From Candidatus Woesearchaeota archaeon (lineage in GTDB: Archaea > Nanobdellota > Nanobdellia > Woesearchaeales > UBA119), in the NCBI GenBank assembly GCA_035363095.1, contig DAOSEK010000001.1:17233-81232 (forward strand): 64,000 nucleotides of DNA, in the 5' to 3' direction. The translations under genes and the position numbers were made by a program. Position 1 is the first letter of the stretch. The number at the start of each line of letters is the position of its first letter. Below, piece by piece: positions 12,041 to 54,175 of this stretch. The notes beneath the pieces are model-generated. The model was not told the origin of the DNA and ran no database searches. It saw only the letters and a list, made by a program, of their open reading frames with translations.

Positions 12041-12168
12041 ATAAACACCTTTTTTTGATTGAATATCTTATTTTTTGAATTTTTATTTCGTTTTTTCTCT
12101 ATTTCTTACTATATTATTTTTTTATATTATTATACTTCATATCGTTATTTTTTATAATATTATTTTTT

Positions 12169-14328: not shown

Positions 14329-14810
14329 TTTTTATTTAGAGAATGTTTTTTTAGTATATCTTTTATTTTCTCTTTGTTTAGGTTTCCATATATTTTTCCA
14401 TTTATCATTGCAACGGGTGCAAGTGCACAAGCTCCAAGGCATCTTACTTCCTGAAGAGAAAATGCTAAGTCTTTTGTGGTTTCTCCAAGTTTTATTCCAA
14501 GTTCGGTTTCAAATATTTTTATTATTTCAAGACTGCCTTTCACTCTACAAGCAGTCCCATCACAGACTTGAATTGATATTTTTCCGTTTTTTTGAAAACT
14601 AAAGTAGCTGTAAAATGATAGTATGCTAAATATTCTTGATAGGGGAATTTTTAATTCTGTTGAGATGAAGTCTGCATCATCTGGGGATACAAATCCCTGT
14701 TTTTCTTGAATTTCTATTAGTAAAGATAATAGGTTTAGCCTTTTTTGTTTAGTGTGATTGTGTACTATTGTTTTAACCTCATTTGAGATGTTTGTGTTTA
14801 AATTTGTCAT
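14325..14810 (-). CDS. hydC: NuoE-like thioredoxin-fold [2Fe-2S] subunit (HydC)
   Basis: The 161 aa ORF has the NuoE/HoxE Cys pattern (CDGTACRVKGS...CLGACALAPVAMINGKIYG). It is translationally coupled to hydB. Confidence 0.75.
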   Translation of the reverse strand: MTNLNTNISNEVKTIVHNHTKQKRLNLLSLLIEIQEKQGFVSPDDADFISTELKIPLSRIFSILSFYSYFSFQKNGKISIQVCDGTACRVKGSLEIIKIFETELGIKLGETTKDLAFSLQEVRCLGACALAPVAMINGKIYGNLNKEKIKDILKKHSLNKK

Positions 14811-30675: not shown

Positions 30676-31947
30676 TTAGCCCCACTTTTTTATTGCCAGA
30701 GCTAATTCAGGGTGATTTTGGGCATATTTTTTTAAGGAAATTTTTGATAGGCTTGCGTCAAGTGCCTGTCTTATTGCTTTAGCTCCTTGAGTCGTTCCTT
30801 TAGGATGGCCATGACATCCACCACCAAATTGAAATACTGTGTGAACGCCAAAGATTTTGCATAGTGCGGGGATATGCCCTGGATGAAGTCCGCCTGAACT
30901 TACCGCAAGCGTGGGTTTTATTTTGCTCCAGTCTTCTGTTAGAGATTCCATTTCAATCTTATCGGCCTCAATTTCATTAAATATTATTTTAACTTCGCTT
31001 TCTGAACCTTGCATTTTGCCAACGGCTGTTCCAATATGAACTAAGTCTACTCCTGCAAGTCTTGATATTTTTGCGATTACAAGCATTGAAACACCATGAT
31101 GGGGATTTCTTGTGATTGCGGCATGCATTGCTCTGTGAGCATGGATTATTAGCCCTTTTGAGTTGTTTCTAAGGGTTTGAAGTGCTCCAAAACCAGTTGT
31201 TAGAATATCTACCATAATGGTTTCTCCACCTAAAGATTTTACATAATCAAGACGTTTTAGCATCTCTAAAGATTCTGCAGTAACGTTTGCAAGGTATAGC
31301 TTTTTTTCGCCTGTTTTTTGCTCTGCTTTTCTTTTTTGTTCAAGGGTTTTTTTAATTCTTTCTCTGAATTTGTTAAATGTCATGTTTGTGAGATTTTCAT
31401 CATCTTTTACTATGTCTATTCCACCAACCCACGCGTCGTAGGCTACTTTTGCATGTTCGGTTGCGCTTAGACCCACTTTTGGTTTTATTATTGTTCCTAC
31501 AAATGGACGATTGTATACACCTGTTATTTTTCTAATCCCTTCGATACCATGCAAGGGACCTTTGAATGATTCTATGTACTTTTTTGGGAAGTATATGTTT
31601 TCAAGTCTTAGTGTGTTTAATAATTTCATTCCAAATATGTTTCCGGCAATTGCTGATAGGAGTTGAGGAAGATTGCCTAGTTCGAAAAGCTCAATTGGAT
31701 ATGCAATTTTTATTTTGTATAAATTTTTGGAGATTTTTGTTATTGAATAAACGTGAGGGGATAGTCTTTTTTGTATTGAGCTTGTTAGGGTGTATATGTC
31801 TGTCCATGTGCCTATTGAACTTTCTGCAGCAATTTGTGAGGAAACAGATTCTATTGAGTTTGATTTTGCTTTAGAAACTAAGTAATAACAGATTAGTTCT
31901 TCTTTTTTTGGAATATACTCTAAATCAACGTATTCGAATTTTTTCAT
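30676..31947 (-). CDS. rbcL: Ribulose-1,5-bisphosphate carboxylase/oxygenase large subunit, archaeal form III-like
   Basis: The lysine-carbamate and catalytic loop region is GTIIKPKVGLSATEHAKVAYDAWVGGIDIVKDDENLT. The C-terminus has GGLHPGH and FQFGGGCHGHP. The protein is 423 aa, typical of form III. Confidence 0.85.
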   Translation of the reverse strand: MKKFEYVDLEYIPKKEELICYYLVSKAKSNSIESVSSQIAAESSIGTWTDIYTLTSSIQKRLSPHVYSITKISKNLYKIKIAYPIELFELGNLPQLLSAIAGNIFGMKLLNTLRLENIYFPKKYIESFKGPLHGIEGIRKITGVYNRPFVGTIIKPKVGLSATEHAKVAYDAWVGGIDIVKDDENLTNMTFNKFRERIKKTLEQKRKAEQKTGEKKLYLANVTAESLEMLKRLDYVKSLGGETIMVDILTTGFGALQTLRNNSKGLIIHAHRAMHAAITRNPHHGVSMLVIAKISRLAGVDLVHIGTAVGKMQGSESEVKIIFNEIEADKIEMESLTEDWSKIKPTLAVSSGGLHPGHIPALCKIFGVHTVFQFGGGCHGHPKGTTQGAKAIRQALDASLSKISLKKYAQNHPELALAIKKWG

Positions 31948-41439: not shown

Positions 41440-42490
41440 GTTATTATAGTATAAGACATAAATAACGCATACTTTATATAGTAATTGTACCATTATGTTC
41501 TTATGATAAACTTACAAACTCGTGAACTCTTTCTTAAGTGGAAAAAAGAAGGTAAAACGCAACAAAACATCGCTGAATTAGTGGGTTGTAATCAATCTGC
41601 GGTTAGTCGTTTATTAGTAAAGCACAAAAAGATGAGAAGTGTCAAGAACATTCCTCGTAGTGGTCGACCAACACCGCTAACAAAGGAAACACTTACTAAA
41701 CTCAAAAAAGAGTTTAAAAAACAGACAAGAGCGGCAAATAAAAAATTTTGTTCAATCGACACAAAACTATTTTCTCAATTAATTGAAAAAGAGGCGAATA
41801 AAAAATACACCACAAGACATATTGAAAGAATTATGCACAAATAGGGGGTTTTTTAATAACTAATCGTTCACAGCATATCAAAAATGATCCGAAAAAAATG
41901 CAGAATTTCGTGAAGATTTTAAAAAAAACAAAAAACAATATATTTGGGTCCTGAAATTATAGCAATAGACGAAGCAAGTTTTCAATTAACAACAACCTAC
42001 AAAAAAATTTTGTTTTCTCGTGGAGAAACACCGCTAGGTGCATTTTTTTGGAGCAACAAAAAACTTATAACTTTTGGTGCTTTAACAAGCGAACACAAAT
42101 TCTACTACGATTTTTATTACTTACAAAATAGTTTAACATTCAAACACTTTTTAAGAACCTTGTTTGAAAAATTAGACAAGAAAAAGAAATACTTTTTGAT
42201 CTTAGACAACGTAGGATTTCATAAAACGATATGCCTAAAAAATTTACTCTAAGAATACTCCCATCAAATAAGTGTCGAGCATATTCCACCTTTCTCTCCC
42301 GAACTAAATCCAATAGAAACATGCTGGAAAGTAACAAAAAATTATATGACACTATCCTAACATTTCAAAGACCTATACGAAATGCAAGAAAAGTTAGAAA
42401 ATTTTTGGTCAGAACAGATTTTTATGCAAGATTTTATGCGTTACTTATGTCGCCAACTACTATAATATTACTAAATAGAACAAATGTATT
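41440..42490 (+). mobile_element. Decayed IS630/Tc1-mariner-family insertion sequence, boundaries approximate
   Basis: ORF 41485-41844 is the HTH N-terminal part of an IS630 transposase (QQNIAELVGCNQSAVSRLL...RSGRPTPL). ORF 41944-42252 carries the DDE core (IDEASF...LDNVGFHKT). After an in-frame TAA at 42250 the same frame continues with the third acidic residue region (SVEHIPPFSPELNPIETCWKVTKNY), ending at 42357. The HTH and DDE parts lie in different frames. Confidence 0.75.
41944..42357 (+). pseudogene. IS630-family DDE transposase catalytic domain interrupted by an in-frame stop
   Basis: See the mobile_element entry. The D, D and E motifs are present but are split by a TAA at 42250-42252. 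The catalytic domain is separated by a frame change from the upstream HTH ORF. Confidence 0.65.
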
Positions 42491-42536: not shown

Positions 42537-43820
42537 ATGAAACGAACCTTGACAGTAGATGTTGCTGATAGAATTGGCGAGAAAGTTAAGATATGTGGCA
42601 GGGTATCTAATATAAGGATTTTCAAGGAAGTTGAATTTTACATTATTAGAGACAGGACAGGAGAGATTCAGGCTGTTTTTGAATCACAAAATGCTTTTAA
42701 AAAAGACGTTAAGAAGAATGCCATTGTTGAAGCCTATGGAGAGATAATTAGTGAAAATAGAGCTCCAGGGGGTTTTGAGCTAATAGTTGAAAGAATTGAT
42801 ATTTCATCTGAACCTCTGATTTCGCAACCTATTTCAACAGAGTCATGGTCAAAAACTAACATTGATTTAGAATTGGACAACAGAGCAATTTCACTTAGAA
42901 ATCCTGCAAATATAGATATTTTTGAACTTCAAAGTGCCATAGCAAAATACTTTAGAGATTTCTTTAGCAATCAAGATTTTGTAGAAGTATTTACACCAAA
43001 AATCGTAAGTAAAGGAGTCGAATCAGGTTCAAAAACGTTTAAATTAAATTATTTTGGACATCAAGTAGAACTAGCACAAAGTCCACAACTTTATAAGCAA
43101 ATCTTAGTAGGTACACAACTTGAAAGAGTGTTTGAAATTGGACATGCTTACAGAGCAGAATTGCATGATACTCCAAGGCATTTAAATGAGTTTATTAGCA
43201 TGGATGTGGAGATGTCTTACATTGATTGTTTAGACGATCTTTTAAAACTTGAAGAATCGTTTTTACATCAGCTCTTTTCAGAAATTAATATAAATTTCAA
43301 GGATATGTTAAATAGGAGAAAAATTGAACAACTGCCAGAAATAAAGAATATTCCAAGGGTGGCTTATGAAGAACTAAAAAAAATGTACAAAAAAATTAGG
43401 AAACATGAAGTTTCGATAAAGGATAGCAATTTAGAAAAATTTGCCTGTGACTATTTTATGGAAACAGAAAAGCTACCACTTGTGTTTATTACACATTTTC
43501 CATTAGTACAAAGACCATTTTACACAAAGCCGTCAGATGATGGAGTTTGTTCCGAGTCTTTTGATTTAATATATAGTGGATTAGAAATTACATCAGGTAG
43601 CATGAGAATTCATCAATATGACTTACTTAAAGAAAGCTTAAGAAAGTATAAGATTGATGAGGGAGGGATTAAATCTTATTTACAAGCATTTGAAGGTGGA
43701 ATGCCAAAACACGGTGGGTTTGCCATTGGACTTGAAAGATTGACATCACAAATTCTCAATCTGGATAATGTAAAACTAGCATCGCTATTTCCAAGAGATC
43801 GAAAGAGATACGTTCCCTGA
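42537..43820 (+). CDS. Class IIb aminoacyl-tRNA synthetase of the AspRS/AsnRS type (paralog 1)
   Basis: An N-terminal OB-fold anticodon-binding domain is present (VKICGRVSNIRIF...IIRDRTGEIQAVFE). Class II motifs are present (QSPQLYKQ, FEIGHAYRAELHDTPRHLNEFISMDVEM, GGFAIGLERL). The C-terminus is LFPRDRKRYVP. The track ORF start at 42231 reads through IS630 remnant sequence. The likely start is the ATG at 42537 (MKRTLTV). Confidence 0.7.
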   Translation: MKRTLTVDVADRIGEKVKICGRVSNIRIFKEVEFYIIRDRTGEIQAVFESQNAFKKDVKKNAIVEAYGEIISENRAPGGFELIVERIDISSEPLISQPISTESWSKTNIDLELDNRAISLRNPANIDIFELQSAIAKYFRDFFSNQDFVEVFTPKIVSKGVESGSKTFKLNYFGHQVELAQSPQLYKQILVGTQLERVFEIGHAYRAELHDTPRHLNEFISMDVEMSYIDCLDDLLKLEESFLHQLFSEININFKDMLNRRKIEQLPEIKNIPRVAYEELKKMYKKIRKHEVSIKDSNLEKFACDYFMETEKLPLVFITHFPLVQRPFYTKPSDDGVCSESFDLIYSGLEITSGSMRIHQYDLLKESLRKYKIDEGGIKSYLQAFEGGMPKHGGFAIGLERLTSQILNLDNVKLASLFPRDRKRYVP

Positions 43821-43926: not shown

Positions 43927-43983
43927 AAAATAATTGATCCACAAAATCAAAATTAGATAAAGTAACTTGTGAGGTGTAACAGG

Positions 43984-45018
43984 ATGTATGGTAAAAAAAA
44001 GTCAGTGTTGATATTGAAAACAGGCGGTACTATTGCGATGGAGAAAAATAGTCTAGGGGTTTTAGCACCAACATCAAATGGTTTTATTGATAAAATACCT
44101 GGTATCGGAGATATAGCTAAAATTGATACGATAGACCTCATGAATATAGACAGCACTAATATGACTACAGAATATAGAACAAAAATAGCAAGTGAGATTT
44201 ATAAGAAATATTTTCACTACGATGGCTTTGTGATTACGCATGGAACGGATACAATGGTAGATACTGCTGCCGCGTTGAATTACATGTTGCAAGACATTGG
44301 CAAACCAATAGTTCTAACAGGTTCCCAAATTCCTATTTCTGCGGGTGCCAGTAGCGATGCAATGAGAAATATATATCTTGCAGTAAAGACAGCAACATCT
44401 GATTTTAGAGAAGTAGTTATTAGTTTTGGTAACTATGTTCTTAGAGGAAATCGAGCAATTAAAAAAAGTGAATGGGAATTTGATGCATTTGATACACCTC
44501 GGGCAGGATACCTTGCAGAAGCTGGAATTGAGTTTATATTATCTGACTCGCGAATACCTAGAAACAAAAAAACACCAAAACTATATGCCAATTTTGATTC
44601 TAAAGTAAATTATATATCTCAAACTTCAGGAGGCCAAAATTCTCCAATAAAGTATTATGCTGATAACCCCAGAGATATAAGTGGCTTAGTTATTGAGGGT
44701 TATGGTGCAGGAAATATTCAAACACACCTACTACCAAGCCTTCAGAGGATGACCAAAATGGGAAAAATAATAGTAGTTACAACAAATTGTCTAAATGGCA
44801 GAGCAGATTTAAACCTTTATGAAGTAGGAGATTTGGCGATGAAAAGTGGTATTTTATCTGGGAAAGACATGACATCACACACTGCAGTACAAAAGCTTAT
44901 GTGGGCGTTAGGAATTTCAAAAAACATAACAGACAAGTATCATAAAATACAAAAAGTCAAAGAACTCTTTTACAAACCTATTGGTAGAGACATAGAATTG
45001 TCGTATAGCCTACGCTAA
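43984..45018 (+). CDS. Type I L-asparaginase
   Basis: The N-terminal TGGTIAM threonine motif is present (VLILKTGGTIAMEKN). GTDTM and a second Thr/Lys region are present. The protein is ~345 aa. The GTG track start at 43969 was replaced by the ATG at 43984, which lies 8 nt after a gaggtg Shine-Dalgarno-like site. Confidence 0.75.
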   Translation: MYGKKKSVLILKTGGTIAMEKNSLGVLAPTSNGFIDKIPGIGDIAKIDTIDLMNIDSTNMTTEYRTKIASEIYKKYFHYDGFVITHGTDTMVDTAAALNYMLQDIGKPIVLTGSQIPISAGASSDAMRNIYLAVKTATSDFREVVISFGNYVLRGNRAIKKSEWEFDAFDTPRAGYLAEAGIEFILSDSRIPRNKKTPKLYANFDSKVNYISQTSGGQNSPIKYYADNPRDISGLVIEGYGAGNIQTHLLPSLQRMTKMGKIIVVTTNCLNGRADLNLYEVGDLAMKSGILSGKDMTSHTAVQKLMWALGISKNITDKYHKIQKVKELFYKPIGRDIELSYSLR

Positions 45019-45317: not shown

Positions 45318-46664
45318 ATGATTAAAACAAGATTTATTGAAGAGATTATTAAGGACAACAAAGAAGGTAATGAACAGGTTCACGGATGGATAATTGGAAA
45401 AAGAAAATCAAAAAACTATATTTTTTTAGATATTAAAGATAGTACTGGGGTTATTCAAGTTGTACTAAACAAAAAAAAAAATGTTAACGAAGATATTGAT
45501 TATATCAAAAATCTTAAATTAAACTCTGCAGTGAGTGTAACTGGGGCGTATAATAATTCTAGAAATCAGCCTGAGATTATTGCATCATTTTACAAAATAG
45601 AAAAAGAAGCAACATTAAATTTACAGCCAAATCCAAGTAATCCACTCTTAAATCCTTTTAATGAAAATTTTATTAAGCATTTAACTAAACATCCCACATT
45701 TTACATTTCTAATAGGAAGTTAGCTACCGTTTTAAAAATAAAATCAAGATTTAGACATAATCTGGCGAGTTGGTTTTGGAGCAATAAATATGTCCAAATG
45801 GAACCCCCCGAGTTCACAAATCAAACTCTTTATGATGATAATGGTGCTTTTTGGATTAACTTAAATGGTCAAAAGATATCATTATCTAGATGTGCAACAT
45901 TTCATTTAGAACCTGGGATAATAGCTTACGAAAAAGTATTTTGCATAACTGAAACTCACGCAAACGAAATGAGTAGGTCTAAGAGACATTTAGCAGAATT
46001 TACACATCTTAAAGCAGAACTCGCGTGGGCAAATTTAGAAGATTTGATGAGTATTGCTGGAAAGATGCTTTATGAAACAGTCAGACAAACAGTTAGTGAT
46101 TGTCAGAAAGAAATTGAAATATTGGGTTTAGGTAATATTATTGAAGATAAAATAAATAGACTTAATCCCAAGAACTACAAAATTATATCCTATGATGATG
46201 CAATTGAATTGATAAAGAAAAAAGGAAAATCATTTGACTACGGAAAAAGTTTGTCTAATAAAGATGAAGAAATCCTTACCTTGGCACACAATAATTCTTT
46301 GTTATGGATTAAATTTATTCCTTGTACTGCAGAAGGGTTTCCTTTTAAGCGCAAAAATGATACTCCTCATTTAACAATGGTAAGTGATTTAATTGCTCCT
46401 GGAGGATTTGGTGAGATTTTGGGTATTGCTGAAAAAATAACAGACTATGATGAATTACTATCTAGGATGAAAGAAAAAGGAAAAGATACGCCTGAACAAC
46501 TAGAAAGGTACAAAGATTATTTAGATTTGAGAAAATGTGGTTTACCAGAACATGGTGGAATTGGTATGGGAATTGAACGTGTGGTAAGATTTTTGCTAGA
46601 TTTAAAACATGTGAGATATACAAGACCTTTTCCTGTAATCCATAAAACAAAAATTAATTTCTAA
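45318..46664 (+). CDS. Divergent AspRS/AsnRS-like class II aminoacyl-tRNA synthetase paralog (paralog 3)
   Basis: An OB-fold-like N-terminus is present (VHGWIIGKRKSKNYIFLDIKDSTGVIQVV). A motif-2-like segment (FHLEPGIIAYEKVFCITETHANEMSRSKRHLAEFTHLKAEL) and motif 3 (GLPEHGGIGMGIERVVRFL) are present. It lacks the canonical FPRDxxRLxP ending and ends PFPVIHKTKINF. Confidence 0.6.
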   Translation: MIKTRFIEEIIKDNKEGNEQVHGWIIGKRKSKNYIFLDIKDSTGVIQVVLNKKKNVNEDIDYIKNLKLNSAVSVTGAYNNSRNQPEIIASFYKIEKEATLNLQPNPSNPLLNPFNENFIKHLTKHPTFYISNRKLATVLKIKSRFRHNLASWFWSNKYVQMEPPEFTNQTLYDDNGAFWINLNGQKISLSRCATFHLEPGIIAYEKVFCITETHANEMSRSKRHLAEFTHLKAELAWANLEDLMSIAGKMLYETVRQTVSDCQKEIEILGLGNIIEDKINRLNPKNYKIISYDDAIELIKKKGKSFDYGKSLSNKDEEILTLAHNNSLLWIKFIPCTAEGFPFKRKNDTPHLTMVSDLIAPGGFGEILGIAEKITDYDELLSRMKEKGKDTPEQLERYKDYLDLRKCGLPEHGGIGMGIERVVRFLLDLKHVRYTRPFPVIHKTKINF

Positions 46665-46737: not shown

Positions 46738-47170
46738 CTAAAAGAAGGAGTATCTGTTAAGCGATTGTTGGTTAATAACAGCTCGATTTGATTGTGCGAT
46801 ATAATTTTTTATTACCTCTGCGGTTACATTACCAACACTTCGAAAAAAATTTCTAGGACTCCAAAGATGCCCCTTCCTGAAATAACCTCTCAACCACTTG
46901 TGCTTTTGGAAAAGCTTATAAGAGCTGTATCCCTTTAAGAGGTTGAACGCCTTTGAAACGCTCATTGTTGGTGGCACTTCAACAAAAAAATGAACGTATC
47001 AGTCATAACTTAAAGTTCGTATAATTGCATCCCATAACGTGATATGGCCTCTTTTAATATTACTTCACAGTCAGCCTTTACCCATGGGAATTTGAAACAA
47101 TCCCATGCATATTTTGGTTTCCATACCAGATGAAAACTGTTTTGTCCAACGCTGTGTGCGAAATTTGTTA
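46738..47170 (-). pseudogene. tnpA: IS200/IS605-family Y1 (HUH) transposase tnpA, disrupted by a stop plus frameshift
   Basis: Minus-strand translation gives the N-terminal part MEITNFAHSVGQNSFHLVWKPKY...PWVKADCEVILKEAISRYGMQLYEL*. After a one-base frame change it gives YVHFFVEVPPTMSVSKAFNLLKGYSSYKLF...WLRGYFRKGHLWSPRNFFRSVGNVTAEVIKNYIAQ. Together these match the IS200 TnpA consensus (HxH...PKY...DHVHLLV.IPP..SVS...LKG.SS...W...YF..SVG). Confidence 0.75.
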
Positions 47171-47290
47171 TTTCCATTTAGCTCATCTCCGAAGAGCAAA
47201 GCTCACGCTAACTTCGGGTGGTTAGTGCGTGGCGCAAAAAATTTTCGCTCGCCACGTATTTTTTTATTTTAGAAAAGAAAAAGATTTGTG
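47170..47290. mobile_element. GC-rich hairpin-bearing IS200/IS605 end region
   Basis: Two perfect palindromes are present: ccgaag...cttcgg and cgtggcgcaaaaaattttcgctcgccacg. They lie adjacent to the tnpA pseudogene. The local composition contrasts with the AT-rich surroundings. Confidence 0.5.
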
Positions 47291-47589
47291 TAAAAAAGAC
47301 AAGCCTTCAGTCTAAAGACTGAGGTATTTAATACGTTTAACTAGAGAATTATCTTATAGCTCAAATTTTTTTGAACTAAAATTATGAAACCCTATAGGAA
47401 TCCTTGTGCACTTTATCAAATGCCTCACAGGTCAGTTTTTTCATTTATTCAGTTGAAGTAACATATGAACCTGCCCAAAACTATTTTATTGCTTAAGAGA
47501 AATTTAAATTTTTAGAATCTCAACGTATCGAACTAATAGATAATTTTATAAATGAGTCTTTTTTTCTTTTTGGAAGTATTGATATTTTT

Positions 47590-47662
47590 GGCTCCGTAGC
47601 TCAGTAGGTGGAGCGCACGACTGTTAATCGTGAGGTCGGCAGTTCGAGGCTGCCCGGAGCCG
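47590..47662 (+). tRNA. tRNA-Asn (anticodon GTT)
   Basis: The sequence is GGCTCCGTAGCTCAGTAGGTGGAGCGCACGACTGTTAATCGTGAGGTCGGCAGTTCGAGGCTGCCCGGAGCCG. The anticodon stem CACGA/TCGTG encloses loop CTGTTAA. A T-tract follows. Confidence 0.85.
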
Positions 47663-47702
47663 CTTTTTTACTTGTCATGTGTAGATAAGGAGTGTTATAT
47701 GA

Positions 47703-48995
47703 ATGAAAATTTCCGAACTAAAAGAAGGAATGGAGAATATTGAAATTTATGCTTCAGTTCAAGATACAAAAGCAATTGGGAAGATAATTTTTTTAAAGTT
47801 AAGAGATGACAGCGGGCTTGTCCAACTCACTTGCATTGAAGGAAGTGATATACCTTTTGATGGCATTAAATCTATAAAAAAGGAGTTTTATGTAAGAGTA
47901 AAAGGGGATGTAAGAGCTTCTAAAAATGAAGGGAGTATTGAAATCATTCCAAAACATATTATAGTTGTTTCTGAAAGTTCAGGTGATTTACCATTCAAGA
48001 TAAATAATGAATTTGAGAAGGTTTCTCAGGATAAAAGGTTAGATTGGCGCTCTTTGGATTTGCGAAGCTTAAGATTACAATCTATTTTCAAGATACAATC
48101 AGCGATTGTGGAAGGTATTACACAAGAGTTATTTTCTAAAGGATTTCGAATTTCATTTACGCCTTGTTTACTGAATACTGCATCAGAATCAGGTTCTGAG
48201 GTGTTCCCAGTCATATATTTTGACAAAGAAGCATTTCTCAGACAAGACCCACAGCTACATAGGCAACTTACTATTGCTGGTGGAGCCAAAAAGATATTTG
48301 ATTTGGGTCCAGCTTGGAGAGCAGAAAAATCACATACAAAGTACCATCTATGTGAGCACAGGGTTTGTGCGGTAGAATGCGCAGATATTGAAGATGAACG
48401 TGACATTATGAGAGTCGAAGAGTCTTTGATAGTCTCAGCAATTAATAAAGTTAATCAAACTTGCAAAGATGAATTAGAAAGACTAAATACAAGCATTTGT
48501 GTTCCTAAAACACCCTTTCCAGAGTTGACTTTCCCTGAAATATTCTCGATTTTGAAAGAAAGTGGAAAGGAAACTTTCGACAGCGAAGATTTGGATAAAG
48601 AAGCAGAGCAAATTTTAGCTAAATATGTTAAGGATAAATATGACTCAGATTTTTATTTTGTTAACAGATTTGCTTTCTCGATAAAGCCATTTTATGTAAT
48701 GAGAATAGATGATAATCCTAAACGGGCAAGATCTGTGGATTTGTATTATAAGGATCTAGAGTTGAGTTCTGGTGGACAACGAGAGCACAGATATGAGTAT
48801 TTGATGAGAAACATTGAAGAAAAGGGTGTTAAAATCTCTGAGGTTGAATGGTTTGTGAAATTCTTTAAGTATGGCGTTGCGCCTCATGGGGGATTTGCTT
48901 TAGGAATAGAAAGATTAACACTCGCACTTACTAAAAGTGAAAATATTAGAGATTGTGTACTGTTTCCAAGAGATCCAGAGAGGTTAAATCCATGA
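47703..48995 (+). CDS. aspS: Aspartyl-tRNA synthetase, archaeal type (paralog 2; likely non-discriminating given the downstream gatCAB)
   Basis: An OB-fold N-terminus is present (IGKIIFLKLRDDSGLVQLTC). The class II core and the ending APHGGFALGIERLTLALT...VLFPRDPERLNP are present. The Shine-Dalgarno site aaggagtg lies 9 nt upstream. The stop overlaps the gatC start (ATGA). Confidence 0.8.
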   Translation: MKISELKEGMENIEIYASVQDTKAIGKIIFLKLRDDSGLVQLTCIEGSDIPFDGIKSIKKEFYVRVKGDVRASKNEGSIEIIPKHIIVVSESSGDLPFKINNEFEKVSQDKRLDWRSLDLRSLRLQSIFKIQSAIVEGITQELFSKGFRISFTPCLLNTASESGSEVFPVIYFDKEAFLRQDPQLHRQLTIAGGAKKIFDLGPAWRAEKSHTKYHLCEHRVCAVECADIEDERDIMRVEESLIVSAINKVNQTCKDELERLNTSICVPKTPFPELTFPEIFSILKESGKETFDSEDLDKEAEQILAKYVKDKYDSDFYFVNRFAFSIKPFYVMRIDDNPKRARSVDLYYKDLELSSGGQREHRYEYLMRNIEEKGVKISEVEWFVKFFKYGVAPHGGFALGIERLTLALTKSENIRDCVLFPRDPERLNP

Positions 48996-49273
48996 GAATA
49001 GATGAACAAACTATTGAAATTTTGTCCAATATTTCTAAATTGAAACTAAGTGCTGATGAACAGAATCATATGATAGTTGATCTTAAAGGCATTCTTAATG
49101 CTTTTATAGCAATACAAGAAATTGATGTTCATAATTTGGAAAGTGCCATATTGCCCATTCACTTTGAGAACTGTATTAGGAATGATGAAGCCAGGGTTTT
49201 TGAAGAAGATGCTACATCAACAGCAATATATATTATCGATAATTTTATAATCGGTCCGAGGACTTTAGAATGA
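48992..49273 (+). CDS. gatC: Asp/Glu-tRNA amidotransferase subunit C
   Basis: The ~93 aa ORF is coupled by ATGA overlaps to aspS upstream and gatA downstream. Its size and position are typical for GatC. The track start (48953) lies inside aspS. The ATG at 48992 (MRIDEQTIE) was chosen. Confidence 0.65.
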   Translation: MRIDEQTIEILSNISKLKLSADEQNHMIVDLKGILNAFIAIQEIDVHNLESAILPIHFENCIRNDEARVFEEDATSTAIYIIDNFIIGPRTLE

Positions 49274-50697
49274 TTATAGAACACATAAATAACGTGAATT
49301 GTGAGAAAATAGACTTAACATCGTTTGCTAAATCTGTTATTGATGAGATAAAGGATATAAACTCGAAGATTTACTGTTTCAATTGTGTTTGCGAGGATTC
49401 TGCACTAAAGGATGTCCAGATAGTGAGTAAACGCAAAAAACTGGAAAAAGGAACCCTTGCAGGGTTAATAATTTCTGTAAAAGATAACATTTGCGTTAAA
49501 GATGTTGAGACTACAGCAGGTTCAAAAATCCTTTCAGGATATAAGCCAGTATTCAATGCAACGGTTGTTGAAAAGCTCAAAATGGAAGGAGCGATAATAG
49601 TAGGAAAAACTTCTATGGACGAGTTTGGATTTGGTGGCTTTAATATTAATACAGGAGTAGATTTTAAGGTCCCTTTAAATCCAATAGACCTCAAAAGAAG
49701 TACAGGAGGTTCTAGTGGAGGAAGTGGAGCAGTAACAAAAGTAGTTGATTTTGCTCATGTTTCGATTGCTGAAAGCACAGGTGGTTCTATTGAATGTCCA
49801 GCATCATTTTGTGGGGATGTTGGTTTTTGTCCAACATATGGTAGGATAAGCAGGTTTGGTCTTATTTCATATGCCAATTCATTAGACAAAATTGGTATAT
49901 TGTCAAAAGATGTGGAGGATATAATCCCTGTTTTTAATGCAGTTGCAGGTAAGGACAATAAAGATCCTACTTGCATAACTGATACAATTAAACTAAAAAA
50001 AGCAATAGCAAAAAAAAAATTTAAAATTGGTATAATTAGTGAGTCATTTGATGACTATATTGCCGATTATATTAAAGAACATCTAAGGGTACTAATAAAT
50101 CTAATCAAGAAGAAGCATGAAATTTTTGAAGTTTCTTTACCTTTCACTTTTAAGTACGGAGTGCCAACATATTACATAATTGCTACAAGCGAAGCATCAA
50201 CAAATCTTTCCAAATTCTGTGGGTTAAGATATGGAATTCAGGCAGATCCAAAGACTAAGACATTTTCCAATTTTTTTTCAGAAATAAGGTCTGAGAATTT
50301 GGGAAAAGAAGCAAAACGTAGGATTTTACTTGGAACCTATGCTAGAATGGCAGGTTATAGAGATGAATATTATCTCAAAGCAACAAAAGTCAGGCGACTT
50401 ATAATAGATGAATATAAAGAGGCTTTCAAAAAGTATGATGTTTTAATTTCTCCAACCACCCCAATGTGTGCACCATTATTTTCAGAAATATCGAAGATGG
50501 ATGTTGTGGAACAATATTTGTTTGATCAATTAACAGTTGGTCCAAATCTCGCAGGTTTACCTCATGCATCAATCCCTTTTGCAAAATTCGGTGAAATGCC
50601 TTTAGGACTAATGGTTGTTTCAGATCACTATAAAGAACAGGAACTCATTGATTTTCTGTTTGAAATTGAGAAGGTTGGTAAGGAGAATGGAATTTAA
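49270..50697 (+). CDS. gatA: Asp/Glu-tRNA amidotransferase subunit A (amidase family)
   Basis: The amidase signature is GGSSGGSGAVTKVVDFAHVSIAESTGGSIECPASFCG (GGSSGG...TGGS(I/V)R-type). The protein is 475 aa. Confidence 0.85.
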   Translation: MIIEHINNVNCEKIDLTSFAKSVIDEIKDINSKIYCFNCVCEDSALKDVQIVSKRKKLEKGTLAGLIISVKDNICVKDVETTAGSKILSGYKPVFNATVVEKLKMEGAIIVGKTSMDEFGFGGFNINTGVDFKVPLNPIDLKRSTGGSSGGSGAVTKVVDFAHVSIAESTGGSIECPASFCGDVGFCPTYGRISRFGLISYANSLDKIGILSKDVEDIIPVFNAVAGKDNKDPTCITDTIKLKKAIAKKKFKIGIISESFDDYIADYIKEHLRVLINLIKKKHEIFEVSLPFTFKYGVPTYYIIATSEASTNLSKFCGLRYGIQADPKTKTFSNFFSEIRSENLGKEAKRRILLGTYARMAGYRDEYYLKATKVRRLIIDEYKEAFKKYDVLISPTTPMCAPLFSEISKMDVVEQYLFDQLTVGPNLAGLPHASIPFAKFGEMPLGLMVVSDHYKEQELIDFLFEIEKVGKENGI

Positions 50698-52105
50698 TCA
50701 AGAGGTAATTATAGGTTTGGAAACACATATTGAAGTAGATACATTATCTAAATTATTTTGCTGTTGCCCACGTACTGGGATAGACACTCCTAATTCCAGA
50801 GTATGTCCTATTTGTCTTGGTCATCCTGGAGCGAGACCTTTTTTAAATGGCAAAGTCTTGGCAGCTGCAGTCAAATTGGCTTTAGCGATTGATGGTCAGA
50901 TTACAGAAAAAGTTGTGTTTTCCAGAAAAAACTACTTTTATCCTGATATGGCAAAGAATTTTCAAATAACTCAATTTGAAAGTCCACTGTCACAGAAGGG
51001 GTCTGTGAAATTAAATTCCGGTAAGTTAGTTAAAATAAGAAGACTTCATATTGAGGAAGACCCTGCGTCTTTAGTCTATCCGAAAACTATGAGAGATTCT
51101 CAATATGTTTTAATTGACTATAACAGATCAGGTATCCCACTTATTGAGTTGGTAACTGAACCAAGTATTAATTCTCCAAGAGAAGCAAGAGAATATATGA
51201 ACAAGCTCATGTCCATTTTAAGTTACCTTAAGATTTTTGATGTGAATTCCTGTGTCATCAAAAGTGATGCTAATATATCTATAAGAGATAGTGATTATAC
51301 ACGTGTTGAAATCAAGAATATAAGCGGAATTAAGGAGATTGAAAAAGCCCTTTCTTACGAGCTGATGAGACAGCGATCTTTGATACGCAGAGGAATTAAG
51401 ATTGTTAAAGAAACTAGAGGCTGGAACAAAGTAGGAAAAACGACTTTTAGCCAGCGAACGAAGGAAAGCGAAGAAGATTATGGGTATATTTCAGAGCCTG
51501 ATCTTCCCGAAATAGTTATCACACCAGAATATATACGGAAGAATAAGGATGAAATTCCTGAATTACCAGCACAAAAGCAAGTAAGATTTGTTGAAAAGTA
51601 TAAACTTAATGAGGATGATTCATTCGTATTGACTAAGGAACCTGAGATTGCAGATTTATTTGAGAACGTCGCAAAGGTGATTGATTCAAATATCGCTGCT
51701 AACTGGATAAGAGGTGAGATTTTGCGCGTTCTGAATTATAACAAAAAAAGATTGAATGATTCTTACTTATCTGCTGAGAGAATAATAGATTTACTGAAGT
51801 TATTATGTGAAAATAAGATCTCTAAAAATATGGCTCAAAATTTTTTGGAAAGAATGATTACTGAGAATTTTTCTCTCAGAGATTACATTTTGAACAATAA
51901 TATTTCGCAGATTTCGGATGACAAAATATTGACAGATATTGCAAAAAAGGTGCTAAATGAGGAAAAAATTGCATTAGAAGATTATTTGAGTGGTAAGGAA
52001 AAAGCGCTTGATTATATCATTGGAAAATGTATGGCACTTTCAAAGAGTAAGGCCGACCCAATAAAGATCAACAAGATACTATTGACTCTAATAAGAACGC
52101 GTTAA
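50687..52105 (+). CDS. gatB: Asp/Glu-tRNA amidotransferase subunit B
   Basis: The motifs are GLETHIE, CPICLGHPGA, RKNYFYPD and HIEEDPAS. A C-terminal YqeY-like tail is present. The start was set at the ATG at 50687 (MEFNQEV), which overlaps the gatA stop. The track ORF begins upstream, inside gatA. Confidence 0.85.
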   Translation: MEFNQEVIIGLETHIEVDTLSKLFCCCPRTGIDTPNSRVCPICLGHPGARPFLNGKVLAAAVKLALAIDGQITEKVVFSRKNYFYPDMAKNFQITQFESPLSQKGSVKLNSGKLVKIRRLHIEEDPASLVYPKTMRDSQYVLIDYNRSGIPLIELVTEPSINSPREAREYMNKLMSILSYLKIFDVNSCVIKSDANISIRDSDYTRVEIKNISGIKEIEKALSYELMRQRSLIRRGIKIVKETRGWNKVGKTTFSQRTKESEEDYGYISEPDLPEIVITPEYIRKNKDEIPELPAQKQVRFVEKYKLNEDDSFVLTKEPEIADLFENVAKVIDSNIAANWIRGEILRVLNYNKKRLNDSYLSAERIIDLLKLLCENKISKNMAQNFLERMITENFSLRDYILNNNISQISDDKILTDIAKKVLNEEKIALEDYLSGKEKALDYIIGKCMALSKSKADPIKINKILLTLIRTR

Positions 52106-52210
52106 CTGCTAAGATTCTAATAGGACATATAATAAATACTCTATCTTGGATGAGTTAGTAAACAAATTTCTATTGTTGATTAATTGTATTTTGAGTGTTT
52201 TTTTAGTTCT

Positions 52211-53575
52211 CTATGCGAAAAGATAATTTTCTATTTCCCAATCAGTAACTATTAGCTGATTGTAGTTTTGCCATTCCTTTTCTTTTATATCAATGTATCG
52301 TTTAAAATAGCTTTCTCCAAGCATGTTTAACATTAGTTGACTTTGCTTAAAGTAGGTAATTGATTCAAATAGCGATGTTGGAAGAGTAGTTATTCCTTTT
52401 TTTGATAAATCTAATGCGTTTTCTTTGAAGACATTAGTGTTAGTATCTTTCATAATGTCTAGTTTTTTATCAATTCCTTCCAAACCTACATGCAAAAGAG
52501 CTGCAAAAGCAAGATAGGGAGAACATAAACCATCAGGACTTCTTATTTCAGCATGTGTATGATGATTAGCAACTATTGAAGATATTGGCACTCTGATTAA
52601 GGCGGAACGATTGCCTACGCCCCAACAAATATATACTGGTGCTTCGTGATCAGGAACAAGCCTTTTGTAAGAGTTGATACAAGGATTTAATATCAATGCC
52701 ATTTCTTTAGCAAAGAAAAGTTGAGCCTGAATAAAATTCCTTGCTAGATTCGAAAGATGTAATTGATCAATAGGATTGTAAAACAAAGAGTTTCCTGACA
52801 AATCTTCTAAACTGAAGTGTATATGCATTCCACTGCCTGCACATTTAGAGAATGGTTTTGGCATAAAAGTTGCCAACAGACTATGTTTTTGTGCTACAGT
52901 TCTAATAACTTCTTTCATTATCATTATTCTATCCGCAGTTATCAAAGGGTCACCATATTCTAAACCTATTTCATGTTGCCCCGTTCCTACCTCGTGGTGT
53001 GCCTTATCAACAGGCAGTCCAATAGATTTTAAATTATTTAGTATTTCCAAACGAATTTCATTTGACTTGTCTTTAACTTGATGATCTAAGTATGAACCAT
53101 TGTAATCGAAGGAAGGTGGAACAATCTTATCTCCCTTTTTTTCTACAAGAAAAAATTCAATTTCTGGTCCTACTTTCAAATTGAACCCTTTTACTCTTGC
53201 TTTATCTAGGGTTTGTTTAAGAATAGTTCGAGGTGAACAGCTATGAAGTAGGTTTTCTTTGCTATACACATCACAAAATACTCTCTTAACTAGAGCACCC
53301 GATTCATTTTGTAGAATAAAGTTGTTATTAAGGTTAGGTTTCAGGTACATGTCACTATCATATATCTCTTTAAATCCTTTCACTGAAGAACCATCAAACC
53401 ATATTCCTGAGTTTTTAGATTTTTCAAAGGAATCTTTTGTTAGTTGTATAACTTTAGGATTACCCAGAATATCACAAAATTCTAGTTCAACAAATTGAAA
53501 TCCATTATTAAATTCTTCATTAGTCTCATTGCCATAATTATTGATTAATTCTTCTTTATTGCTTATTTCATTCAT
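52211..53575 (-). CDS. glnA: Glutamine synthetase type I
   Basis: The ATP-binding signature is KPFSKCAGSGMHIHFSL (GSGMHxHxS). The protein is 454 aa. It is divergently adjacent to an Lrp-family regulator. Confidence 0.85.
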   Translation of the reverse strand: MNEISNKEELINNYGNETNEEFNNGFQFVELEFCDILGNPKVIQLTKDSFEKSKNSGIWFDGSSVKGFKEIYDSDMYLKPNLNNNFILQNESGALVKRVFCDVYSKENLLHSCSPRTILKQTLDKARVKGFNLKVGPEIEFFLVEKKGDKIVPPSFDYNGSYLDHQVKDKSNEIRLEILNNLKSIGLPVDKAHHEVGTGQHEIGLEYGDPLITADRIMIMKEVIRTVAQKHSLLATFMPKPFSKCAGSGMHIHFSLEDLSGNSLFYNPIDQLHLSNLARNFIQAQLFFAKEMALILNPCINSYKRLVPDHEAPVYICWGVGNRSALIRVPISSIVANHHTHAEIRSPDGLCSPYLAFAALLHVGLEGIDKKLDIMKDTNTNVFKENALDLSKKGITTLPTSLFESITYFKQSQLMLNMLGESYFKRYIDIKEKEWQNYNQLIVTDWEIENYLFA

Positions 53576-53710: not shown

Positions 53711-54175
53711 ATGAAAGCAAATGAAAAGTGGGAACTAGATGAATTAGATCGGAAAATAATAAGATATCTTCTGCAAAATGCAAAGGCATCTTTTAGAAAG
53801 ATTTCAAGAGCTTTAAGGATAACCTCAGTTACAGCTCTTAATAGAATAAAAAAACTTGAAGAAAAAGGAATAATTATAGGCTATTCAGTTAAGCTTGATA
53901 TGGAAAAAGCAGGTTTTGATGTTAATGCAATAATAAAACTTCGCATTTCAAAAGGAAAGTTATTTGAAGTTGAAAAAAAGATTGCGATACATAAAAGAGT
54001 TGTTGCTGTATATGATGTCACTGGTGATTTTGATTGCATTATAATAGGTAAGTTTAAATCCAGAAAGGAACTGGATGTGTTTCTAAAAGATACTCAAACC
54101 TATGACTTTATCGAGAGAACTGAAACTATTCTCATTCTTAATGTAATAAAAGAGGATAATATTGCCGATATATAA
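53711..54175 (+). CDS. Lrp/AsnC-family transcriptional regulator
   Basis: An N-terminal HTH (LDELDRKIIRYLLQNAKASFRKISRALRITSVTALNRIKKLEEKGII) is followed by a RAM/ACT-like effector domain. Confidence 0.8.
   Translation: MKANEKWELDELDRKIIRYLLQNAKASFRKISRALRITSVTALNRIKKLEEKGIIIGYSVKLDMEKAGFDVNAIIKLRISKGKLFEVEKKIAIHKRVVAVYDVTGDFDCIIIGKFKSRKELDVFLKDTQTYDFIERTETILILNVIKEDNIADI

Follow-up and report, generated by a model that had tools for sequence, protein, structure and literature searches.

Linkage of a tRNA-Asn gene to an aspS-gatCAB operon in a Woesearchaeota archaeon: a probable joint unit of the indirect Asn-tRNA pathway and its substrate tRNA

Asn-tRNA formation by the indirect route is textbook knowledge. 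Some arrangements are also known in which tRNA genes stand in front of protein genes. In the pylTSBCD cluster, which serves the 22nd amino acid and moves horizontally as a unit, the tRNA-Pyl gene lies directly upstream of the synthetase and amino-acid biosynthesis genes, and in the E. coli cluster thrU-tyrU-glyT-thrT-tufB the tRNAs precede the gene of a translation factor, no promoter intervenes, and RNase processing separates tRNA from mRNA. In bacteria of the Thermus/Deinococcus type the tRNA gene is, to our knowledge, unlinked. Here we describe a stretch of 64,000 nucleotides (hereafter, the window; contig DAOSEK010000001.1 of assembly GCA_035363095.1, positions 17,233 to 81,232 of the forward strand) from a Candidatus Woesearchaeota archaeon, in which a tRNA-Asn gene immediately precedes an operon for an aspartyl-tRNA synthetase (AspRS, gene aspS) and the amidotransferase GatCAB. 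Linkage of this kind is beyond chance, recurrent and position-specific in DPANN archaea, and we consider it probable that in the window it unites the enzymes of the indirect pathway and their own substrate tRNA in one expression unit.

Among the closest described systems, Thermus thermophilus and Deinococcus radiodurans employ an extra AspRS together with GatCAB for making asparagine despite the presence of an asparaginyl-tRNA synthetase (AsnRS) (PMC4206432). The Asn-transamidosome is a ribonucleoprotein assembling only around tRNA-Asn (PMC9499178), which provides a rationale for co-expressing this tRNA with the proteins. Synthetase, amidotransferase and tRNA act as a single particle in the system studied to date. 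Finally, the aspS-gatCAB operon of Clostridium acetobutylicum is described as carrying a tRNA-Asn-specific T-box riboswitch (Saad et al. 2012, as relayed in PMC4206432). The unit in the window consists of the following elements (surveyed loci from other assemblies carry numbers beginning with L):

47535-47572, plus strand: putative promoter block, 38 nt identical in L178; its function is presumed
47590-47662, plus strand: tRNA-Asn, anticodon GTT, mature form (ARAGORN, 47590-47663; Rfam, 65.3 bits)
47687-47694, plus strand: Shine-Dalgarno-like AAGGAGTG, 8 nt before the aspS ATG
47703-48995, plus strand: aspS-B, archaeal-type AspRS of 430 amino acids without a GAD domain, presumed non-discriminating
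48992-49273, plus strand: gatC, 93 amino acids (Pfam GatC; TIGR00135 aligned over 1-93)
49270-50697, plus strand: gatA, amidase subunit, 475 amino acids (Pfam Amidase, 374 bits)
50687-52105, plus strand: gatB, 472 amino acids (NF004012, 529 bits; cutoff 338)

All four protein genes are full length, with catalytic motifs present in GatCAB, so that the truncation of gatCAB, which the original prediction had named as fatal to its case, did not materialize. AspRS-B scores 438 bits with NF003483 (cutoff 353) and 374 bits, also above cutoff, with TIGR00458; its Pfam domains (tRNA_anti-codon and tRNA-synt_2) are of the archaeal type, and it aligns over the full length to 1B8A, 3NEL and 1N9W, the best solved relatives being the AspRS of T. 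kodakarensis and AspRS2 of T. thermophilus. GatC (43.8 bits, cutoff 47.1) and GatA (TIGR00132, 453 bits, cutoff 481) fall slightly below the cutoffs of their family models; the latter nevertheless aligns over its full length with the model and end to end with Aquifex and S. aureus GatA, keeping the KDN and GGSSGGS amidase motifs. GatB residues 7-469 align to residues 5-479 of T. maritima GatB from the solved GatCAB structure. The chaining of the genes by overlapping stop and start codons was described correctly: the aspS/gatC junction is ATGA (gatC ATG at 48992, aspS stop at 48993-48995), the gatC/gatA junction is another ATGA at 49270, and gatA and gatB overlap by 11 nt (gatB ATG at 50687, gatA stop at 50695-50697). 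Longer TTG starts of gatC and gatB, present in a mechanical list of open reading frames (ORFs), were ruled out, as the family models begin at the ATGs and independent gene calls concur.

AspRS-B belongs to a family whose active-site motifs are non-canonical and invariant in an alignment (A1) of 36 relatives from DPANN, Methanomethylicia, Bathyarchaeia and other archaea. This family has LRQDPQLHRQ in place of LAQSPQLYKQ, FTPC for TPK, and WRAEKSHT.xHxCEHRxCAVE for FRAE..T.RHLNE...D.E, together with conserved cysteines C155, C217, C222 and C254; the lysine and aspartate that bind Asp in classical AspRS are replaced by Arg and Ala.

The tRNA identity stands as originally called: ARAGORN, Rfam and the cloverleaf agree on Asn(GTT), with no other isoacceptor in play. 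The cloverleaf is canonical, with an acceptor stem GGCUCCG/CGGAGCC (hence G1-C72), a D stem GCUC/GAGC (hence U12-A23), an anticodon loop CUGUUAA, a 5-nt variable loop AGGUC containing G46 and U47, and the discriminator G73 at 47662; CCA is not encoded. Its sequence is 100% preserved in L178, where the flanks have diverged. The original prediction had proposed examining U1-A72 and D-loop elements for GatCAB recognition, and the G1-C72 pair fails this expectation. The expectation is a bacterial rule (U1-A72, no U20A), which we set aside as inapplicable to an archaeal window; the failure carries no weight because archaeal GatCAB does not use the first pair 1-72 (PMC1635274). Archaeal tRNA-Asn has G1-C72, as does tRNA-Asp, and archaeal GatCAB instead reads the variable region's G46 and U47 (Bailly et al., PMC1635274), accepting 5-nt variable loops and refusing the 4-nt loops of tRNA-Asp and tRNA-Gln (review PMC2330236). 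This archaeal rule is satisfied by the tRNA-Asn of the window as well as by every tRNA-Asn gathered in our survey, and the sole tRNA-Asp seen there (L063) has, as expected, a 4-nt variable loop; the window itself contains no tRNA-Asp gene.

The placement of likely promoter signals also speaks for a single unit. A TATA-like box (TTTTATAAAT, 47544-47553) is located 37-46 nt upstream of the mature 5' end of tRNA-Asn, and such boxes precede the mature 5' ends of all free-standing tRNA genes of the window by 30-45 nt. A comparison with L178 reveals 38 identical nucleotides here, whereas no alignment is possible farther upstream and identity within the tRNA-aspS spacer drops to ~60%; this block is therefore read as the footprint of one promoter upstream of the tRNA, putatively serving tRNA-Asn and, by extension, the whole unit. 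The spacer between tRNA-Asn and the aspS ATG (47703) is 40 nt long, just as predicted, and the AGGAG core of AAGGAGTG within it is complementary to the 3' end of the 16S rRNA encoded in the window (GGATCACCTCCT), thus representing a real Shine-Dalgarno match. Protein genes of the window are of two kinds, leaderless (TATA ~25-30 nt from the ATG) or preceded by a Shine-Dalgarno site (TATA at -47 to -52), and for aspS the positions -47 to -52 fall within the tRNA, in its G+C-rich T arm and acceptor stem. The tRNA and aspS share a strand, and both space and signal for an internal promoter are absent from spacers of 40, 40, 19 and 15 nt (window, L178, L173 and L172, respectively); the two shortest therefore exclude an internal TATA box, and the same argument of no room for a promoter applies to tRNAs that start 6-10 nt after gatB in other genomes (see below). 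The tRNA-aspS spacer yielded no Rfam family and no significant fold (z = -0.83) that would point to a regulatory RNA, and no T-box or other riboswitch was detected in the window at Rfam gathering thresholds, where rRNAs and tRNAs were the only matches. A T7 run at 52198-52204, downstream of gatB, is a candidate end of the unit.

Based on these signals, a tRNA-mRNA co-transcript with read-through is probably the best and simplest model. The 3' end of tRNA-Asn is followed by C and then by a T6 run (47664-47669), and because this run is of the kind customary for tRNA trailers or oligo-T terminators, read-through has to be assumed. A primary transcript would start from the promoter ~40 nt upstream of tRNA-Asn, and a fraction of it would pass the T6 tract into aspS-gatC-gatA-gatB, so that T4-T6 runs would act as leaky terminators setting the tRNA output above the mRNA output. 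RNase P and tRNase Z would then excise the tRNA, leaving an mRNA with a 40-nt leader bearing the Shine-Dalgarno site, and the overlapping stop and start codons would couple translation of the four proteins. AspRS-B would aspartylate tRNA-Asn, and GatCAB, recognizing the tRNA via its 5-nt variable loop, would amidate the product to Asn-tRNA(Asn). Overall, we infer that the linkage helps the parts of a tRNA-dependent transamidosome to be expressed, assembled or inherited together.

Further evidence is comparative. A survey of related genomes, suggested by the original prediction, was run on three sets, namely, 80 loci from genomes, centered on AspRS homologues, 80 loci from metagenomes, centered on GatB homologues (mostly bacterial, 34-42% identity, sparse for DPANN), and 20 loci from an exact-protein look-up, with tRNAs and relevant genes mapped on all of them. 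The same linkage recurs, in two geometries. In the first, found in seven related Woesearchaeota assemblies, tRNA-Asn lies upstream of aspS, with four spacers of 15-40 nt and three that small insertions have lengthened to ~160-730 nt:

Window: AspRS identity 100%, tRNA-aspS spacer 40 nt
L178: AspRS identity 89%, spacer 40 nt
L177: AspRS identity 91%, spacer ~160 nt
L172: AspRS identity ~59%, spacer 15 nt
L173/L174: AspRS identity ~59%, spacer 19 nt
L165: AspRS identity 57%, spacer 337 nt, with a small insertion and a duplicate tRNA 3' end
L166: AspRS identity 57%, spacer 726 nt, with a small insertion and a duplicate tRNA 3' end

In the second geometry, found in Aenigmatarchaeota, one Micrarchaeota metagenome-assembled genome (MAG) and unclassified archaea, tRNA-Asn directly follows the gatB stop codon, at these distances:

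L003/L004: 6 nt
L063: 6 nt
L091: 7 nt
L066: 10 nt
L023: 22 nt
L035: 54 nt
L071: ~1 kb

In every linked case tRNA-Asn and the operon are on the same strand. Over the non-redundant loci, 10 real tRNA calls fall within 150 nt of aspS/gat genes, and 8 of them are tRNA-Asn; among the 71 tRNAs farther away there are 7 tRNA-Asn, the expected share being ~2% at about 46 tRNA species per genome. The locus L023, a would-be ninth case, was dropped by the score cut; an eleventh nearby call, a tRNA-Leu in L066, proved to be a misreading of the two-intron tRNA-Asn of that locus. The original prediction regarded such linkage as unusual, which holds in general (none of the three bacterial aspS-gatAB loci has a nearby tRNA-Asn, and L091 alone among the 80 mostly bacterial gatB loci has an abutting one, with L149 having one 1.8 kb off in a tRNA array), but not within the DPANN clade, where it is common.

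The two longest spacers of the first geometry have a visible history. In both L165 (~6664-6835) and L166 (~6275-6470), the final ~20 nt of tRNA-Asn, together with CTTTT, are repeated 150-190 nt downstream of the tRNA. The duplicate resembles a scar left by integration of a small element into the tRNA 3' end, and it implies that the compact state is ancestral. The inserts between the copies share a conserved hairpin-like motif (TTTTGTGGGTAAGCA...TGCGCATCCC). A search of the window for the duplicate tRNA 3' end and for this motif found neither.

Many of these tRNA genes are difficult to recognize. One or two introns interrupt tRNA-Asn in L165 (6549-6663), L166 (6179-6274), L066 (8287-8397), L172 (6861-6985) and L023 (14501-14592); among them are non-canonical D-loop introns and one anticodon-loop intron of 52 nt, the latter in L172. 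At the gathering threshold, Rfam misses the genes of L165 and L066 and returns only a partial match for L166. ARAGORN without intron mode misses L165 and L066, it misses L166 even with intron mode, and it misnames L023 as tRNA-Ser and, in intron mode, L066 as tRNA-Leu. To recover the tRNA-Asn genes of L165, L166, L066 and L023, we combined intron mode with regular-expression searching and visual inspection.

In DPANN genomes the direct and the indirect route to Asn-tRNA share one gene slot. Directly after aspS these genomes carry either a canonical asnS (L026, L028, L031, L043, L044, L048, L061, L069, L074) or gatCAB (L001, L003, L025, L063, L067, L165, L172, L173, L175), and both kinds of locus occur together in one MAG, JBDRAZ01, where each includes a separate aspS (L001 and L026, 58% identical). 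In L074 (8859-10267; CP066683, a Woesearchaeota chromosome of 737 kb), a tRNA-Asn gene separates aspS from a canonical asnS and lies 41 nt before the latter; tRNA-Asn thus also accompanies the enzyme of the direct route.

The 16S and 23S rRNA genes in the window are archaeal by Rfam, and ARAGORN finds four tRNA genes in it. AspRS-B has a 100% identical counterpart in a Candidatus Woesearchaeota MAG, with the next relatives in other Woesearchaeota at 57-60%. The same 13-21 kb, with identical genes (100%), occur in four separate metagenome assemblies of the Joint Genome Institute (JGI), which therefore excludes an assembly artefact. Elsewhere the window encodes NuoE-like, NuoF-like and [FeFe]-hydrogenase large-subunit proteins (10316-14810, minus strand; trimeric, electron-bifurcating type), a form III-like RuBisCO large subunit (30676-31947, minus strand) and an S-layer protein, a gene content that fits a fermentative DPANN archaeon.

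The unit is embedded in a wider neighborhood of genes related to Asp and Asn metabolism, as aspS-A, an asparaginase gene and an AsnRS-like gene lie within 6 kb upstream on the same strand:

41503-42340: IS630-type/DDE_3 transposase remnant, frameshifted, directly upstream of aspS-A
42537-43820, plus strand: aspS-A, second AspRS, 427 amino acids from the ATG at 42537 (NF003483, 457 bits)
43969-45018, plus strand: type I L-asparaginase family (TIGR00519, 257.8 bits, cutoff 260.5; both Pfam asparaginase domains)
45318-46664, plus strand: AsnRS-like class IIb paralog, 448 amino acids, with an OB anticodon-binding domain and an altered active site
46738-47177, minus strand: split IS200-like Y1 transposase pseudogene (Pfam Y1_Tnp, fragments covering model positions 59-120 and 4-45)
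52211-53575, minus strand: glnA, glutamine synthetase, convergent with gatB (TIGR00653, 397 bits)
53711-54175, plus strand: Lrp/AsnC-family regulator (NF041396, 111 bits; Pfam AsnC_trans_reg)

AspRS-A has the canonical motifs QSPQLYKQ and FRAE..RHLNEF, its best solved match is T. thermophilus AspRS2 (1N9W), and it shares 29% identity with AspRS-B. Its nearest relatives, at no more than 47% identity, are bacterial (Spirochaetia, Bacillota, Latescibacteria) and belong to the 'archaeal-type' AspRS2 clade; aspS-A was probably acquired horizontally. A mechanical ORF of 529 amino acids starting at 42231 is a fusion of aspS-A to the transposase remnant, the real start being the ATG at 42537. An asparaginase orthologue with 44% identity ends ~70 nt before tRNA-Asn-aspS-gatCAB in L173 (5767-6837) and L174 (4202-5272), and the enzyme may salvage free Asn to Asp (plus NH3) where a cell without AsnRS cannot charge Asn. 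The AsnRS-like gene and tRNA-Asn are separated by 925 nt devoid of ORFs, much of which is taken up by the Y1 pseudogene with its hairpin-rich flanks.

The AsnRS-like paralog scores 247 bits with AsnRS models, far below the cutoff of 414. In its family the Asn-binding GGSQR is changed to AEKIT and QSxQ to (S/T)(R/Q)C..F.LE, and in the subclade of the window the invariant motif-2 arginine is lost as well (FRAE to HANE or HADE, with HANE in the window). The family retains its OB anticodon domain as well as the Mg/ATP residues and motif 3. The protein of the window is unlikely to be an ordinary AsnRS. The family (P0121-P0206; L167, L169, L171, L179) occurs in DPANN, bacteria of the candidate phyla radiation (CPR) and Bacillota, mostly annotated as 'hypothetical protein', and its gene always adjoins Asn-tRNA-forming genes, either canonical asnS or aspS-gatCAB. 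In the closest archaeal relatives (L167 2576-5389, L169 10001-12812, L171 1287-4096) it is followed by genes for a PP-loop ATPase (320-342 amino acids, SGGKDS motif, weak QueC/NAD-synthase Pfam matches) and a HIT-family protein. A canonical-type AsnRS gene adjoins it in L167 and L171. In a Bacillota bacterium (L179 5001-11320, also L180; GC 33%), a tight same-strand operon comprises the AsnRS-like gene, a divergent asparaginase/GatD-like gene, a GAD-type aspS and gatCAB; its gene content mirrors that of the archaeal window across domains.

Downstream of the unit, the product of glutamine synthetase is the amide donor for GatCAB, and the proximity of glnA and the Lrp/AsnC gene may be a sign that the region is controlled by nitrogen or amino acids. 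In L026, L069, L172 and L173, too, aspS is flanked by Lrp/AsnC genes.

The reading of the window as one expression unit for transamidation has a number of observations weighing against it, on the side of the enzymes as well as on that of gene expression. As to the enzymes, a second AspRS gene and the AsnRS-like gene adjoin the unit. Both AspRS genes pass the model NF003483, which is named 'aspartate--tRNA(Asn) ligase'. The substitutions W26H/K85P (His26 and Pro85, T. kodakarensis numbering), which we take to be markers of non-discriminating AspRS although a literature search found no confirmation, are not matched by AspRS-B: it has Gln at the W26 equivalent, Glu or no residue at the K85 equivalent and no Pro, and its clade likewise lacks Pro at the latter position. 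Moreover, no diagnostic column separates 11 gatCAB-linked from 8 asnS-linked AspRS orthologues, the L1 loops tending to be longer in the asnS-linked Woesearchaeota enzymes of this comparison. AspRS-B is presumed to be the non-discriminating enzyme on the strength of the operon context alone, which favors it over AspRS-A. As to expression, the T6 run after tRNA-Asn resembles an archaeal terminator, might equally well terminate efficiently, and is shared by other tRNAs of the window (tRNA-Val and tRNA-Leu have T-runs directly after their 3' ends, and T4-T6 runs follow tRNA-Asn in L172, L173 and L178). The Shine-Dalgarno site, originally called strong and indeed real in the window by its match to 16S rRNA, is not conserved in L178, in spite of 89% AspRS identity. 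Finally, L175/L176, L001 and L025 have aspS-gatCAB without a nearby tRNA-Asn; within the window's own clade the tRNA is absent only in L175/L176, and the linkage is therefore not obligatory.

The alternative that best survives, although we regard it as unlikely, is a situation similar to that of Thermus and Deinococcus, where a working AsnRS, encoded elsewhere or at 45318-46664, would charge tRNA-Asn, and the unit would mainly make asparagine itself without being the sole route to Asn-tRNA. This explanation would accommodate two AspRS genes of different types in one neighborhood, as in T. thermophilus and D. radiodurans (PMC4206432), the AsnRS-like gene and asparaginase next door, and the coexistence of aspS-gatAB (L001) with aspS-asnS (L026) in one MAG, but it does not fit well with the absence of canonical AsnRS, AsnA and AsnB among the ORFs of the 64-kb window, nor with the loss of both the motif-2 arginine and the Asn-binding arginine from the AsnRS-like protein, whose location beside a canonical AsnRS in relatives suggests a different job. 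The original claim that this organism makes Asn-tRNA by transamidation thus fares well with respect to the intact operon and the archaeal tRNA features, and less well as a claim about a sole route, owing to AspRS-A and the AsnRS-like gene nearby. Transamidation in the host is plausible, and with AspRS-A, the asparaginase and the AsnRS-like paralog upstream, its being the exclusive route is plausible at most.

A more deflationary alternative, which we find quite unlikely, treats tRNA-Asn and aspS-gatCAB as independent transcription units, the former ending at T6 and the latter having its own, unusual promoter in or overlapping the tRNA 3' end, so that adjacency would reflect inherited synteny in compact genomes with no functional coupling. 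Such a promoter finds no A/T-rich box at a workable distance, since positions -25 to -52 of aspS consist of the T6 tract and the G+C-rich tRNA, and in L172 and L173 the spacers would place it wholly within the tRNA. On the other hand, the T-runs shared with other tRNAs of the window, the common occurrence of leaderless genes with TATA ~25-30 nt from the ATG, the lack of conservation of the Shine-Dalgarno site in L178 and the absence of the upstream tRNA in some relatives are all in line with independence. What passive synteny leaves unexplained is the presence of tRNA-Asn 6-54 nt after gatB in other phyla and the 8 of 10 share of Asn among the adjacent tRNAs. The third alternative, that adjacency is a by-product of mobility, with the tRNA as an integration hot spot and a traveling Asn-decoding cassette recording transfer or rearrangement in place of selection for co-expression, is very improbable, because, for all the IS630 and IS200 remnants flanking the upstream Asp/Asn genes, the integration-like duplicate tRNA 3' ends around the 150-190 nt inserts of L165 and L166, the occurrence of asnS in place of gatCAB after aspS in other DPANN genomes and the bacterial type of AspRS-A, there is no integrase or att-flanked island around aspS-B-gatCAB, G+C is uniform across the region with no compositional signature of a foreign island, and the closest relatives of AspRS-B, GatA and GatB (50-60%) are found in the same Woesearchaeota clade in the same gene order, which points to vertical inheritance.

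Beyond the single expression unit, a more ambitious extension can be formulated, which we consider improbable but worth stating, namely, that the unit forms the center of a larger, conserved 'Asn-tRNA module' in ultra-small prokaryotes, with the tRNA as an obligate cis element and the AsnRS-derived and asparaginase/GatD proteins as accessory parts. It draws on the recurrence of the order AsnRS-like/asparaginase-like/aspS/gatCAB in L179 and on the position of the asparaginase gene in L173. According to this extension, tRNA excision would create the mRNA 5' (or 3') end, the transamidosome would assemble on the nascent tRNA, and the AsnRS-derived and asparaginase/GatD proteins would be unrecognized accessory or alternative components of tRNA-dependent asparagine formation, possibly supplying ammonia in partnership with a subunit that binds tRNA-Asn, or editing Asp-tRNA(Asn).

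With regard to novelty, the components and chemistry of the unit are known and the arrangement is not a new mechanism; what is apparently unreported is the embedding of tRNA-Asn in the operon, in two geometries and with conservation across DPANN. No reported linkage of tRNA-Asn with gatCAB genes was found in the searchable literature, where a combination of Woesearchaeota and GatCAB likewise gave no match, and judged from that literature DPANN are a new lineage for this pathway. The part with most room for something new is the association of the AsnRS-like and asparaginase genes. The tRNA-including operon may be viewed as a natural minimal 'asparagine-decoding cassette', comparable to pylTSBCD, and its conservation predicts a tRNA-mRNA co-transcript whose mRNA end is cut by tRNase Z or RNase P. 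The linkage may further serve as a genomic marker for transamidating DPANN, given that the neighbor of aspS is either asnS or gatCAB; and since standard tRNA finders miss or misname the multi-intron tRNA-Asn of DPANN, the pattern would be hidden in automated annotation.

A comparison with the known systems places the locus between several of them. With T. thermophilus and D. radiodurans it shares a pair of AspRS of different evolutionary type, one of them AspRS2-like (here AspRS-A, matching 1N9W), but the roles look reversed, as the native AspRS-B is in the operon and the copy of the bacterial clade is the extra one, and a canonical AsnRS is not seen in the window. As in C. acetobutylicum, aspS and gatCAB form one operon whose expression appears tied to tRNA-Asn; whereas in that bacterium uncharged tRNA-Asn is sensed by an mRNA leader, in the window the place of a leader is taken by the tRNA gene. 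With respect to the Asn-transamidosome, all three types of component that such a complex would need are encoded together in the window. The E. coli tufB cluster differs in that the downstream protein does not have those tRNAs as its specific substrate, and in that the processing enzymes and terminator logic of archaea are different. The likeness to pylTSBCD is closer, as in both cases a tRNA heads a same-strand cluster of charging and amino-acid-making enzymes that amounts to a self-contained decoding unit, although the present unit serves a standard amino acid and looks to be inherited mostly vertically. Finally, for the archaeal indirect pathway described for Methanothermobacter thermautotrophicus and Methanosarcina barkeri, which combines a non-discriminating AspRS with GatCAB, we found no account in which a tRNA-Asn gene belongs to the operon; here it abuts the genes of the enzymes that would act on it, and this arrangement is conserved.

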